Assembly (NCBI GenBank): GCA_964362195.1 | Contig: CAYICZ010000001.1 | Location: 3,486 to 67,485, forward strand | Length of the DNA: 64,000 nucleotides | Direction: 5' to 3' | DNA from: an uncultured Gammaproteobacteria bacterium | Lineage (GTDB): Bacteria > Patescibacteriota > Microgenomatia > Daviesbacterales > UBA10151 | Part shown: in pieces, positions 3,329 through 20,181 of the stretch | Numbering within the stretch: the stretch's first letter is position 1 | How the letters are laid out: the number at the start of each line of letters is the position of its first letter | Position numbers and translations under genes: made by a program | The notes under the pieces: generated by a model | The model's database searches: none | What the model saw: only the letters and a program-made list of their open reading frames with translations | What the model was told of the DNA's origin: nothing

Positions 3329-4683
3329 ATTTTTGGCTTCTCCTTTTTCCAATTAGTTGCTTGTTCATATGCATAGCCCACTTTTAAAATTGTTTCCTCA
3401 TCAAAATGTTTTCCCAAAATTTGTAAGCCAACCGGCAATCCATCTGAAAATCCACAAGGCACAGATAACCCTGGAATACCCGCCAGATTTGCCGAGATCG
3501 TGTAGATATCCTGCAGATACATAGTCAGGGGATCATCAATTTTCTCTCCTAAATTCCACGCTGTGGTGGGGGAGACCGGACCAACTATCACATCCACTTT
3601 TTCAAAAGCTTTTTCAAAATCCCCCTTTACTAAAGTCCTTACTTTGGCAGCTTTGGCATAGTAATCATCCCAGTAACCAGCAGACAGGGCATAGGTTCCC
3701 AGCATGATCCTTCTTTTAACCTCTGCTCCTATATTTTCTCTTCCTTTTCCATATCTAATTCCGTCAAACCTTGCCATATTAGAAGAAACCTCAGATGGAA
3801 CAATTATGTAATAAGCTGCCAGCGCATATTCACTATGCGGAAGACTTACTTCTACAATTTGCGCTCCCAAGCTTTCCAGCTTTTTGATTGCAACTTGAAC
3901 AATTTTTTTTACTTTTGGATCCAAACCTTCTCCAAAATACTCCTTTGGCACACCTACCTTTAATCCTTTAATTCCAGCCTGCAACCTCGGGGGTTGCATC
4001 GTAAACTTTTTACTCTTGCAATTTGAATCATAGCCGTCTGATCCTGAAATCCATTCCAAAACTAAAACAGCATCCTCTACTGATTTAGTTACCGGACCAA
4101 TTGAATCTAAAGATGAAGCCATAGCAATAAGCCCATATCTGGAAACCCGTCCATAACTTGTTTTTAAACCCACTACTCCACAAAGGGACGCCGGTTGTCT
4201 AATAGAACCGCCTGTATCAGAACCCAGGGAAAAAGTACAAAGATCCGCTGCTATTGCTGCTGCAGAACCGGCAGAAGACCCCCCGGGGACTTTTGTCAAA
4301 TCCCAGGGATTTTTTGTGGGACCAAATGCTGAATTTTCTCCGGATCCTCCCATAGCAAACTCATCATGATTTGTTTTCCCGATAATCGATATACCATTTT
4401 CCAATAAACGATTTATTACTGTTGCATTGTATGAAGGAATATAATTTTCTAAAACCTTTGATGCAGCAGTTGTCTTAATCCCTCTGGTGGAAATAACATC
4501 CTTGATTGCAGTTGGAATACCCTTTTTGCTCTCTAATGTTTCCAAATAGGCATTTAATTTAGGGTTAATACTTTTTATTCTTTCCAAATATGCTTTATTT
4601 AATTCTAGCTCAGAAAATTCTTTTTTTTCTAAAGCCTTTATTGTTTGAGTAAGAGTTAGAGAGGTTAAATCAGCCATTATCAA
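3325..4683 (-). CDS. gatA: Glu-tRNA(Gln) amidotransferase subunit A (amidase signature family)
   Basis: Carries the amidase signature [15 protein letters not shown] plus [12 protein letters not shown]. It sits between gatC and gatB in the order gatCAB. Confidence 0.9.
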
Positions 4684-17704: not shown

Positions 17705-18613
17705 TTACTTTTCAAAATATTCATAAACATTTTTTGATATTTGAGCTATTCGATCCTCTGCACCGGCAGGTATATCAGATTTTGATAGAACAACTATTAT
17801 ATAGTCTCCTTTTGTACTAAAAACTATTCCCCCGTCGTGAGAAAAATAACCTAGCTCACCGGTTTTATGAGCAATTATTACTCCCTGAGGTAAATTTTTT
17901 GGCAATTTATTATTAAGCTGTTGTTTTTTAAGCAGATCAATCATCTGGTTAGTATAATCCTGATTTCCTAATACTCCCTTATAAAGTTTTTCAAAAAATA
18001 AGGCTATATCCGATGCAGTTGTAGTAGGACTTTCACCATTAATTCCAACCGTTGACTCATTGAATCCATTTTTTCCTAAAAATAAATCTACCCTGGATAG
18101 TCTTATTTTCTTTGTCAGAAGAAGTGCTGCGTAATTATGCGATATTGAAATCATCTGGCTTAAAGAATCTGCAACAGAAAGAGTTATTGTCCCTTCCGTT
18201 AACTCTGCATCCTCACCTGGAATATTAAAGATATTATTTAAAGTAGATACATCCTCTGATAAAATTTCATCTTCTGATAAATCTCCTTTTTGAATCTGAT
18301 TAAAAATTTCTGTCATAATCCAAAGTTTATAAAGGCTTCCTGCATCAAAAACTTGGTGTTCATTAAGAAAATAACTTTCCCCGTTCTTTAAGTTTTTAAC
18401 AGCAACTGCGTAAGTACCATTACTTCCCTCAAGAGCAGACTTTACTGCATTCTCTAAACTATTAATTTTTTGAATCTTTACCTCCGGTGTTATCAAAAAA
18501 ATTTTATTTGGCTTAAGATAAAAGTAGTAAAATAGAAAATATATACAAATAATTGCCAAAAATATTAAAACTCCTGTTATTTTAAGATTATCTTTTGCAC
18601 GTCTGGTTATCAT
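17705..18613 (-). CDS. Class A beta-lactamase-related serine hydrolase (PBP-like), membrane anchored
   Basis: SxxK (FDAGSLYKLWI), an SDN-like SHN, and a KTG (HKTGELG) box. The start was moved to the Met at 18611-18613 because the longer ORF overlaps tRNA-Val. Confidence 0.6.
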   Translation of the reverse strand: MITRRAKDNLKITGVLIFLAIICIYFLFYYFYLKPNKIFLITPEVKIQKINSLENAVKSALEGSNGTYAVAVKNLKNGESYFLNEHQVFDAGSLYKLWIMTEIFNQIQKGDLSEDEILSEDVSTLNNIFNIPGEDAELTEGTITLSVADSLSQMISISHNYAALLLTKKIRLSRVDLFLGKNGFNESTVGINGESPTTTASDIALFFEKLYKGVLGNQDYTNQMIDLLKKQQLNNKLPKNLPQGVIIAHKTGELGYFSHDGGIVFSTKGDYIIVVLSKSDIPAGAEDRIAQISKNVYEYFEK

Positions 18614-18628
18614 TATCAAAATTAATAG

Positions 18629-18700
18629 TGGACGACGTTGGGATTGAACCAACGGCCTGTCGCATGTGAAGCGACCGCTCTACCACTGAGCTAGTCGTCC
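18629..18700 (-). tRNA. tRNA-Val (anticodon CAC)
   Basis: Minus-strand GGACGACTAGCTCAGTGGTAGAGCGGTCGCTTCACATGCGACAGGCCGTTGGTTCAATCCCAACGTCGTCCA. Anticodon stem GTCGC/GCGAC with loop TTCACAT. Confidence 0.8.
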
Positions 18701-18723
18701 TTTTCCCTCCAATAATTCTAGCA

Positions 18724-18744
18724 TTGGAGCTCTTGCACCACAAC
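18724..18744. repeat. Direct repeat copy A (TTGGAGCTCTTGCACCACAAC) flanking the TA cassette
   Basis: 20 of 21 nt identical to copy B at 19542-19562. It lies between the tRNA-Val 5' end and the PIN gene stop. Confidence 0.6.
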
Positions 18745-18773
18745 TGAATCCGAGTACTGCTTTTTTTTGACTG

Positions 18774-19208
18774 TTATTTAACTAATTCATCAGGGGTTAC
18801 CACTTTAACTGTAAAATGTAATTTAATTTCTTGCTTCTGATGCAATAGGTGCTTTCTATCAAAGCTAACTAAGTAATCTGCTTTAGCTAAAATAGCACCT
18901 GCCACAATCGGAGCATCTTTTAACTCAACAACTTTTGAAACCTTAGATACTAATGCTTTAGTAGGAATTACTATCTCTGGATTTAAAGCTTCCAGGAATA
19001 GTTGCAAAACGGAAAGTGCCTTCGGCGCCTTCTTTGCTAAATTCTTTTGGGTTTCTTCTATTACCAAATCACTTACAATTAATTCAAGTTCTCCAGAAAA
19101 AGATTTCATTATTAGATCTCTGGCGAAACCCCTGGGAGAAATAGCAGCAGCAATAAGGACACTGGAGTCTATGAAAACTCTAATTATCTTTTTTGGATTT
19201 GAGGCCAT
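18774..19208 (-). CDS. PIN-domain ribonuclease, putative type II toxin (VapC-like)
   Basis: 144 aa; acidic residues in PIN positions (FIDSSVLIAAA ... IEET ... SFDRKH). It overlaps the upstream antitoxin gene by 29 nt. Confidence 0.7.
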   Translation of the reverse strand: MASNPKKIIRVFIDSSVLIAAAISPRGFARDLIMKSFSGELELIVSDLVIEETQKNLAKKAPKALSVLQLFLEALNPEIVIPTKALVSKVSKVVELKDAPIVAGAILAKADYLVSFDRKHLLHQKQEIKLHFTVKVVTPDELVK

Positions 19209-19491
19209 ACTTTTTTTCTATTAAGCTACCACGCACGTTCCGACCGGATTCGATTAACTCCTCTAAAGAGAACCCCTTTCCCCTTAACACTTCACCAAGT
19301 TTATCAAGAGCTTTATTAGCGACTACTTGTTGAGGAGTAATCAATACACCTTCATTTGTTTGCTCCACAGCAACTAAGTCTCCCTTTTTAAGGCCTAGTT
19401 TCTCCCGCACTTCCATCGGAAGAGTTACTTGACCTTTTTCCTGGACACGCACTAATTTTCTCTCTGAATATGTAGTTTGTAGGAAAGTCAT
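19180..19491 (-). CDS. AbrB/MazE/SpoVT-family antitoxin (swapped-hairpin DNA-binding domain)
   Basis: GQVTLPMEVREKLGLKKGDLVAVEQTNEGVLITP is an AbrB/MazE-type motif. It is encoded immediately upstream of the PIN gene and overlaps it. Confidence 0.7.
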   Translation of the reverse strand: MTFLQTTYSERKLVRVQEKGQVTLPMEVREKLGLKKGDLVAVEQTNEGVLITPQQVVANKALDKLGEVLRGKGFSLEELIESGRNVRGSLIEKKYGLKSKKDN

Positions 19492-19500
19492 ACTTTCTGA

Positions 19501-19530
19501 ATTTTACCTTATTTCTACTCAACATGTCAA
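19501..19530 (-). promoter_or_regulatory. Putative promoter of the antitoxin-toxin operon (TTGACA, N18, TAAAAT), giving a very short leader
   Basis: Minus-strand TTGACA at 19530-19525 and TAAAAT at 19506-19501, 9 nt upstream of the ATG at 19491. Confidence 0.3.
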
Positions 19531-19541
19531 GGATAGGACAT

Positions 19542-19562
19542 TTGGAGCTCTTGCATCACAAC
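19542..19562. repeat. Direct repeat copy B (TTGGAGCTCTTGCATCACAAC) flanking the TA cassette
   Basis: Matches copy A at 18724-18744 with one mismatch. It lies upstream of the TA promoter and just upstream of the lepB start. Confidence 0.6.
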
Positions 19563-19578
19563 CAAAGCTTTTGAGATA

Positions 19579-20181
19579 ATGGGCTACATGGATCCAAATG
19601 TTGGCTATTATAGTGGTGATGTTCCCAAAAAGGGATTTTTTGGTAATTTGGGTTCTTTTTTTATTGAGTTTTTTGAAACTCTGGTTGTTTTCGGGGCAAT
19701 ATTTGCAATAATTTATCTTTTTATTGCCCAATTCCACAAAGTTTCCGGACTTTCCATGTATCCCACTATGTATAATGGAGATTATTTAATTACGGAAAAA
19801 GTAAGTTACAGATTTGGAGAACCGAAAAAAGGACAAATTGTAGTTTTAAAAAATCCCCGTGATGAATCCCAGGATTTTATAAAAAGAATTATTGCTACCC
19901 CCGGAGATACATTAAGAATAGAAAATGACGGAGTTTTTGTAAATGGTCAGAAGCTTAAAGAAACCTACTTACCTGCCGGAACTCTCACTCATGCAGGAGC
20001 TTTTATCACAGAAGGAACTGAATTGAAGGCTGGTTCTAATCAATATTTTGTATTCGGCGACAATAGAAATCACTCTTCAGATTCCAGAGAATGGGGATCT
20101 GTTACCAAAGAAGAATTCGTTGGCAGGGCTCTTTTTAGATACTGGCCGCCACAAGGAGTAGGGTCTTTAACTAATCTTTAA
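19579..20181 (+). CDS. lepB: Signal peptidase I (S26 family)
   Basis: SGLSMYPTM (catalytic Ser box), KRIIATPGDT, GDNRNHSSDSREWG. Single N-terminal TM helix. Confidence 0.85.
   Translation: MGYMDPNVGYYSGDVPKKGFFGNLGSFFIEFFETLVVFGAIFAIIYLFIAQFHKVSGLSMYPTMYNGDYLITEKVSYRFGEPKKGQIVVLKNPRDESQDFIKRIIATPGDTLRIENDGVFVNGQKLKETYLPAGTLTHAGAFITEGTELKAGSNQYFVFGDNRNHSSDSREWGSVTKEEFVGRALFRYWPPQGVGSLTNL

Follow-up and report, generated by a model that had tools for sequence, protein, structure and literature searches.

A VapBC-like toxin–antitoxin cassette, probably inserted with duplication of a 21-bp target, in the tRNA-Val/lepB promoter of a Daviesbacteria lineage

We analysed a 64-kb stretch of bacterial DNA (64,000 nucleotides; assembly GCA_964362195.1, contig CAYICZ010000001.1, forward-strand positions 3,486 to 67,485), hereafter the window, in which an antitoxin gene and a toxin gene lie between tRNA-Val(CAC) and lepB and are bracketed by two near-identical 21-bp direct repeats. 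The features of the locus are presented in Table 1. The host belongs to Candidatus Daviesbacteria (Microgenomates, Candidate Phyla Radiation, CPR), the group that also supplies the closest named LepB homologues, and contigs of identical sequence come from 0.1-µm filtered groundwater of the Hainich H43 well. Based on the comparison with related genomes we conclude, with a probability of roughly 0.8, that a solitary VapBC-like toxin–antitoxin (TA) cassette was inserted in the tRNA-Val/lepB promoter of one Daviesbacteria lineage and that the 21-bp repeat is a duplication of the insertion target, not a pair of operators. The homologous loci fetched for comparison are labelled L with a number; the window itself has the label WIN.

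Table 1. Features of the tRNA-Val/lepB locus, in window coordinates. Promoter elements are predictions.
Feature	Position	Strand	Details
tRNA-Val(CAC)	18628–18700	−	ARAGORN; Rfam RF00005, 67.8 bits; cassette upstream, same orientation
tRNA-Val extended −10 (predicted)	18715–18723	−	TGCTAGAAT on the minus strand; outside the repeat
Left 21-bp repeat	18724–18744	+	TTGGAGCTCTTGCACCACAAC; predicted spacer and −35 box of the tRNA-Val promoter
Whole insert, 797 bp	18745–19541	−	no terminal inverted repeats, second copy in the window or recombinase gene
Insert 3' tail, 29 nt	18745–18773	−	between PIN stop codon and left repeat
PIN toxin gene, 144 aa	18774–19208	−	PF13470 (E = 2.9e-7); PF01850; TIGR00305
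MazE/AbrB/SpoVT-type antitoxin gene, 103 aa	19180–19491	−	PF04014 (E = 1.7e-11); TIGR01439, 46.7 bits
Cassette promoter (predicted), TTGACA-18 nt-TAAAAT	19501–19530	−	9 nt upstream of the MazE ATG; inside the insert
Right 21-bp repeat	19542–19562	+	TTGGAGCTCTTGCATCACAAC; predicted −35 box of the lepB promoter
lepB extended −10 (predicted)	19572–19580	+	TGAGATAAT; 7 nt before ATG 19588
lepB (signal peptidase I, Peptidase_S26)	19588–20181	+	PF10502 (E = 2.4e-45); public contig gene calls

Both proteins of the cassette have intact domains. The PIN protein exceeds the cut-offs of PF13470 and PF01850 as well as that of TIGR00305 (33.4 bits, cut-off 29.15) and possesses all of the acidic residues of the family: D14, E52 and D117, invariant in an alignment of 28 homologues, and the nearly invariant D98. 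Residues 11–50 of MazE match AbrB-family chains in the PDB, and the N-terminus is similar to solved chains. The two open reading frames (ORFs) are co-oriented, antitoxin first, and overlap by 29 nt. An earlier note on this DNA had described them as a type II TA pair of an AbrB/MazE antitoxin and a PIN toxin; the Pfam and NCBIfam matches and the overlap bear this out, and on sequence-level criteria the pair is classed as a VapBC-like type II TA module. It shares with VapBC-type modules (TIGR00305: 'putative toxin-antitoxin system toxin component, PIN family') an upstream antitoxin gene that overlaps the toxin gene, a PIN toxin with conserved acidic residues, an antitoxin with an N-terminal AbrB-type DNA-binding domain, a promoter of its own and a patchy, mobile distribution; the toxicity, target and autoregulation of the window pair are predictions. 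Gene pairs on Thermus megaplasmids, 34–38% identical, are annotated as VapC family. The search for a sequence relative of the PIN_3/TIGR00305 subfamily among solved structures gave none, and no characterised member of it was found.

Concerning transcription, a strict sigma-70 scan of positions 18500–19750 returned the cassette promoter as its only match (11 of 12 positions), and the segment from the −35 box to the start codon, CTTGACAT...TAAAATTCAGAAAGT-ATG, is kept in homologous cassettes at other loci. On the minus strand the scan for terminators found none between the PIN stop codon and tRNA-Val. The TA genes would be transcribed from their own predicted promoter, in the direction of tRNA-Val and with no terminator in between. 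The 29-nt tail that follows the PIN gene has no similarity to other cassettes, and homologous cassettes diverge straight after the stop codon; the tail could be filler or the decayed part of a once longer duplication. Its weak likeness to the lepB −10 region, considered as a trace of a longer original duplication, was discarded, the stretch being too short and too rich in A and T.

The direct repeats have the consensus TTGGAGCTCTTGCA[C/T]CACAAC and are found in the window only at the two positions of Table 1; both copies lie on the plus strand, are identical at 20 of 21 bases and start 818 bp apart. The earlier note had placed near-identical 21-bp repeats around the TA pair, and its coordinates all hold on sequence comparison. 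Scanning the 64 kb with up to three mismatches gives these two matches, compared with 0.00 in shuffled sequence, and among the 181 fetched loci the 21-mer is confined to the source contigs and L088. The check for further copies proposed in the earlier note thus speaks against a dispersed repeat, a candidate that is ruled out by these counts. As a sliding control, the 200-nt flanks around every 797-bp segment of the window were compared: the real pair scores 17, the control maximum is 14, and none of the 1257 window positions reaches 15.

Between them the repeats enclose 797 bp with the intact MazE/AbrB antitoxin, the PIN toxin and their promoter. MazE and PIN are the sole genes of this segment, and no recombinase, transposase or integrase gene was found in it. 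The longest terminal inverted match measures 5 nt; the 64-kb window holds no second copy of the insert and no paralogues. A transposon, insertion sequence (IS) or MITE (miniature inverted-repeat transposable element) is ruled out by the absence of terminal inverted repeats and of extra copies. The 21-mer shows no dyad symmetry beyond GAGCTC, the Rfam scan in and near the repeat detected tRNAs and no other RNA element, and the composition of the insert shows no useful anomaly (GC 0.35–0.40, neighbours 0.28–0.39).

The evidence for an insertion comes from the relatives. A search with LepB homologues yielded 80 loci from species-level genomes across Microgenomates. In most of these, tRNA-Val(cac) on the minus strand directly adjoins lepB on the plus strand; the spacer between the tRNA and the lepB start measures 64–70 bp in the 13 loci measured, and PIN/MazE genes are found between tRNA-Val and lepB in none of the 80. 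This back-to-back order without TA genes is shared by about 50 related genomes. When window positions 18701–18744 are joined to 19563–19587, a 69-bp spacer results, which aligns almost without gaps with 19 others and contains all of their invariant blocks. L088 and L183, two of the closest relatives (LepB 87% identical to that of the window), are empty sites: the TA genes are missing and the 21-mer is single. Their layout is tRNA-Val, 23 nt, the single 21-mer, 25–27 nt and the lepB ATG: L088 reads tRNA-Val 5' part, GTTTTCCTCCAATAATTCTAGCA, CTGGAGCTCTTGCATCACAAC, CCAAGGTTTTGAGATAATGGATCACAC, ATG, and the single copy of L183 is CTGAAGCTCTTGCATCACAAC. In a three-way alignment L088 agrees with the window's left junction as far as the last base of the repeat, and with the right junction from the first base of the repeat onwards. 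Taken together, the empty sites and the reconstruction identify 18745–19541 as the insert and the 21-mer as the duplicated target. In its first 9 nt (TTGGAGCTC) the repeat differs from species to species, and both window copies are identical there; these positions, non-conserved yet identical, argue for a recent duplication and against convergent promoter motifs. This is what the earlier note had offered as one of its two readings, a horizontally inserted addiction cassette of about 0.8 kb with duplicated flanks, and it is supported by the synteny of the relatives and the two empty sites; the comparison of the tRNA-Val/lepB junction that the note had proposed showed no relative having TA genes together with one or no repeat copy.

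What the target contains can be read from the 20 aligned spacers. The block ATT[CT]TA.CA is invariant and on the minus strand gives TGnTAxAAT, a predicted extended −10 element 14 nt before the tRNA 5' end. The block T.TG.GATAAT, invariant or nearly so, would be an extended −10 element 7–8 nt before the lepB start codon. TTGC would open the lepB −35 box TTGCAY, placed 18 nt upstream of the −10, and CAA corresponds to the minus-strand TTG of TTGTGR/TTGAGA, the predicted −35 box of the tRNA, which precedes its −10 by 17 nt. Both promoters would be of the extended −10 type with weak −35 boxes, and extended −10 elements of a similar kind also precede the other tRNA genes of the window, with a TGnTAnAAT element before tRNA-Asp. 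The 21-mer occupies positions 24–44 of the 69-nt spacer and is made up of a 9-nt piece of the tRNA promoter spacer and the two predicted −35 hexamers, which abut; it is therefore best described as the predicted core of a bidirectional promoter, two abutting −35 boxes with nine lineage-specific bases. The left copy carries the tRNA-Val −35 box TTGTGG (minus strand, 18738–18743) and a lepB-type −35 box TTGCAC (18733–18738) with no −10 after it; the right copy carries the lepB −35 box TTGCAT (19551–19556). Two −35 halves are thus orphaned: TTGCAC faces the PIN 3' end and TTGTGA faces the cassette. Together with 18715–18723 the left copy would form a complete tRNA-Val promoter, and the right copy with 19572–19580 a complete lepB promoter. 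Public gene calls start lepB at 19588; the ATG at 19579 is an unlikely start, because it overlaps the −10 element. The −10 elements of the TA genes and of lepB lie 7–9 nt before the start codons (window 19501–19491 and 19575–19588), and since the lepB spacing is kept across the 20 spacers, a leaderless or near-leaderless mRNA is implied.

The promoter content also bears on the other origin that the earlier note had considered for the repeats, a pair of operators of the AbrB-type antitoxin that would loop the TA locus or co-regulate tRNA-Val and lepB. AbrB/MazE domains do bind DNA, and one of the copies is found 21 nt upstream of the cassette's −35 box. However, about 20 aligned relatives that have no TA genes contain the 21-mer's conserved half as a single copy, as part of their tRNA-Val/lepB promoter; homologous cassettes elsewhere lack the 21-mer and keep only their own region from the −35 box to the ATG; and the second copy lies downstream of the operon. 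With the core at home in TA-less relatives and the cassette served by a separate promoter, operators are rejected as the origin of the repeat, and we regard this reading as barely credible.

Both filled and empty alleles exist among the closest lineages. L182, a groundwater contig of 823 bp whose LepB is 87% identical, is filled and has the same lepB-side junction as the window: part of the TA promoter, matching 19511–19541 at 29 of 32 bases, is joined to TGAAACTCTTGCATCACAAC. In lepB and at the parB end L182 comes closest to the empty L088 (88.5% and 95.4% nucleotide identity), and the window is 83–84% identical to all three relatives (L088, L182 and L183). Sliding windows and informative sites show that lepB is mosaic, with filled and empty alleles interleaved among the four closest lineages; mapping gain against loss on a tree of these lineages is ruled out by the mosaic, which also blurs the independence of the events behind the junction shared by the window and L182 and the precise empty sites of L088 and L183. 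The alleles may go back to one insertion followed by repeat-mediated precise losses, to transfer of the filled allele by homologous recombination, or to repeated site-specific integration. In L003 and L006 (Hainich H43, replicate 3) the contig breaks inside the TA promoter near window 19520–19523 and not at the repeat, which is likely due to low coverage (about 4x) rather than to heterogeneity of alleles.

A related cassette is found directly upstream of tRNA-Val(cac) in L125 (1–2574), whose host is more distant and shows compensatory differences in the tRNA anticodon stem. This cassette is itself mosaic: at both of its ends, 5' in MazE and 3' in PIN, its nucleotide sequence is about 92% identical to that of the window's cassette, the middle is diverged and the PIN gene is frameshifted. 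At its junction a whole promoter copy, including the lepB-type −10, follows the PIN stop codon; the other side lies beyond the contig. L125 is unlikely as the tRNA-side partner of L182, because its junction is a different one and its tRNA is not that of the window and L183. At 0.7 kb downstream of the L125 cassette there is a gene for an IS30-like transposase (HTH_38 and a weak rve match).

Short direct repeats can mediate precise deletion, and the cassette might be an ancestral feature of the locus that nearly all relatives have lost, with a repeat that is older than, or unrelated to, its arrival. The interleaved alleles of the four closest lineages and the related cassette in the distant host of L125 would agree with this. 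Dozens of independent precise losses would nevertheless be required, the TA genes are missing from all 80 species-level loci, and both repeat copies agree at nine positions that vary between species; we consider an ancestral cassette very improbable.

The tRNA-Val/lepB spacer holds other cargo in other genomes. In L029 (4485–4935) and L027 (4552–4935), from other Daviesbacteria, an ORF of 87–88 aa of the GIY-YIG type (PF01541, E about 1e-15) lies between an intact tRNA-Val(cac) and a remnant of the tRNA-Val 5' half that is still on the lepB-side promoter: different cargo at the same spot, with duplicated tRNA sequence as flanks. In L082 (4046–5001), from another Microgenomates lineage (Hainich H51), tRNA-Val and lepB are separated by a DUF3800 gene (208 aa, PF12686) together with a tRNA 5'-half remnant. 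In L089 (about 3380–3610; the same in L090) tRNA fragments surround the intact tRNA-Val, and a 5'-half remnant carries a hairpin of about 41 nt (TTACCCGTTCAAGTTTTGCTTCGCAAAATTTGAACGGGTAA) in the D-loop region; a similar hairpin is found at L029 4873–4915. Extra tRNA-like pieces are also present in the spacers of L007, L011 and L071. In L087 (3925–4000; LepB 84% identical) tRNA-Val is absent, the distance from a beta-lactamase-like gene to lepB is 76 bp and the promoter is reduced to its lepB half. The spacer appears to be an insertion hot spot.

Concerning the distribution of the cassette family, PIN homologues 44–78% identical are numerous in CPR and other groundwater and soil bacteria, in unrelated contexts; every one has a partner MazE gene of about 103 aa, in the same architecture. 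We collected 30 distinct cassettes, 18 of which have at least 200 nt on both sides and were used for a flank-repeat test. Flanking direct repeats scoring at least 15 are found in five of the 18, all with different sequences; control positions reach this score in 3 of 1334 cases within these loci and in 0 of 1257 within the window. Next to the 21 bp of the window, the repeats measure 15 bp in L099, 25 bp (L114) or 48 bp (L115) in the case L114/L115, where they are perfect, 55 to about 83 bp in L108 and 40 to about 100 bp in L141. The 48-bp repeat of L115 spans the final 11 codons and the stop codon of the adjoining lytic-transglycosylase-like gene plus the next 12 nt; as the 3' end of a neighbouring gene, it is target-derived. 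No convincing common core was found among the flanking repeats of the family, which share only the 7–8-mer TGCAAGA or GATGCAAG, in inconsistent orientation to the cassette. A tRNA gene lies within 360 nt in six of 31 distinct cassettes. In L094 (3680–3717, 4500–4560) and L099 (565–600, 1425–1470) cassettes beside tRNA-Gly(gcc) are bracketed by a motif of about 22 nt, GGGG(TT/CG)C.AAATAAYTTGCATC, the downstream copy of which is followed by CCCGCTC(C), like the 3' end of tRNA-Gly; L094 has a second PIN pair after it. These may be tRNA-Gly-associated arrays of TA cassettes.

Site-specific recombination would account for several of these observations: the 21-mer would be an attachment site at which a circular cassette integrates and excises by a recombinase encoded elsewhere, the repeats being the attL and attR cores. 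The lepB-side junction common to the window and L182, next to the precise empty sites of the equally close L088 and L183, is what such a process would leave, and the GIY-YIG and DUF3800 cargo of the spacer (L027, L029, L082) and the cassettes near tRNA genes (six of 31) point in the same direction. On the other side, the insert contains no recombinase, the repeat lies in a promoter and not in the tRNA gene, the family repeats have no common core and vary from 15 to about 83 bp, the L125 junction differs, and the 21-mer lacks dyad symmetry beyond GAGCTC; the shared junction can also be explained by descent and recombination, lepB being mosaic. On balance an attachment site is unlikely, and we prefer insertion with duplication of the target.

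Several points weigh against this preference. The junction shared by the window and L182, seen next to empty sites in equally close or still closer lineages, agrees with site-specific integration or excision just as well as with one event and later loss or recombination. The different tRNA-side junction of L125 may mean that the original duplication was longer or that there were several events. Among the repeat-flanked members of the family, the empty-site comparison covers the cassette of the window only. To our knowledge, 21 bp exceeds the target duplications of classical transposons. The strict promoter scan misses the tRNA-Val and lepB promoters, and the predicted roles of their elements are read from conservation. 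In L091 (3769–3805; the same in L092 and L093) the spacer measures 37 nt and the central −35 core is missing; the core may therefore be non-essential, which weakens the idea that selection required its duplication. The 21 bp also fall below the operational threshold of more than 30 bp used for restriction-modification insertions (PMC2853133). As a further observation on L091, its tRNA extended −10 (reverse complement of TGATAAAAT) nearly abuts the lepB extended −10 (TTTGAGATAAT), and a possible lepB −35 box, TTGCCA, lies within the tRNA leader.

On the preferred reading, a 797-bp unit of promoter, MazE/AbrB and PIN entered the compact bidirectional promoter of tRNA-Val(CAC) and lepB. The duplication would cover the −35 boxes TTGCAY (lepB, plus strand) and TTGTGR (tRNA-Val, minus strand) and 9 nt of spacer; with both −35 boxes duplicated, each neighbour would retain a complete promoter. 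The locus illustrates how an essential and very compact bidirectional promoter tolerates an insertion. The duplication may date from the insertion event itself; one possible way is that a staggered break was filled in, the proposal made for restriction-modification genes. The repeats could in turn mediate precise loss of the cassette. For the family as a whole, it is a tentative suggestion that the MazE–PIN cassettes common in CPR and groundwater bacteria are minimal mobile units with no linked recombinase, which move by variable target duplication or by short-repeat integration and excision and prefer tRNA genes and promoters; the repeats would then be both the footprint and the excision substrate of a general, uncharacterised route of TA modules into chromosomes.

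How solitary TA modules enter chromosomes is a recognised gap in knowledge: a review of 2020 states that the integration mechanisms 'remain unelucidated' and that insertion sites are non-random (PMC7167474). Our literature search for TA modules flanked by direct repeats found nothing on point. Events of this kind are known already; the locus adds a well-resolved example to them and no new kind of system. Its value lies in the exact junctions, the filled and empty alleles in close relatives, a target duplication that is functionally readable, and the reduced CPR genome in which it is found. The clean locus comparisons and the family-wide enrichment of flank repeats suggest that the 'insertion with long target duplication' route of restriction-modification genes may also apply to TA modules; the enrichment makes a wider survey worthwhile, with break repair by fill-in against site-specific recombination at stake.

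Among known mobile systems, small mobile DNA between direct repeats is common to the window insert and to transposons, MITEs and integron cassettes. The insert differs from these in having no terminal inverted repeats, multiple copies or attC-like site, and from transposons in that the length of the duplication varies among family members. There are integrative elements, as Williams reportedly described in 2002, that insert in tRNA genes and bring along a copy of the target end, by which the gene is made whole again on integration. The window insert is likewise adjacent to a tRNA gene, its duplication preserves the interrupted function (here two promoters and not a tRNA 3' end) and its empty sites are precise. 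It differs in that it has no integrase, its family has no common core, and the repeat falls in the promoter, 24–44 nt upstream of the tRNA 5' end, and not in the stretch from the anticodon or T-loop to the 3' end. Such tRNA-targeting elements are mentioned in PMC2853133.

The chromosomal TA insertions of E. coli, such as ccdO157 between folA and apaH (Mine et al. 2009, as summarised in PMC7167474 and PMC3184786), resemble our case in that a solitary TA pair occupies an intergenic site which is empty or otherwise filled in close relatives, and in the decay seen in some lineages (the frameshifted PIN gene of L125). The window, by contrast, shows a clean target duplication whose functional content, two predicted −35 boxes, can be made out.

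A close parallel in kind is offered by restriction-modification complexes, for which 'insertion with long target duplication' has been described (Nobusato et al. 2000, reference 37 in Furuta et al. 2010, PMC2853133): they have a long, variable target duplication and no mobility genes, the repeat being single-copy in a related genome that lacks the insert (PMC2853133). Both are addiction-type units with no transposase, integrase or inverted repeats; the target repeat is unique, and single-copy in an insert-free relative; the repeat length appears to vary in both (in our family, five of 18 members, different in sequence and from 15 to about 83 bp long, with an empty site for the window's case); and some cases lie beside tRNA genes or over the 3' ends of genes. 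The differences are the TA cargo, the CPR host and the 21-bp repeat, shorter than the 30-bp threshold; a longer original duplication at the window site is weakly suggested.

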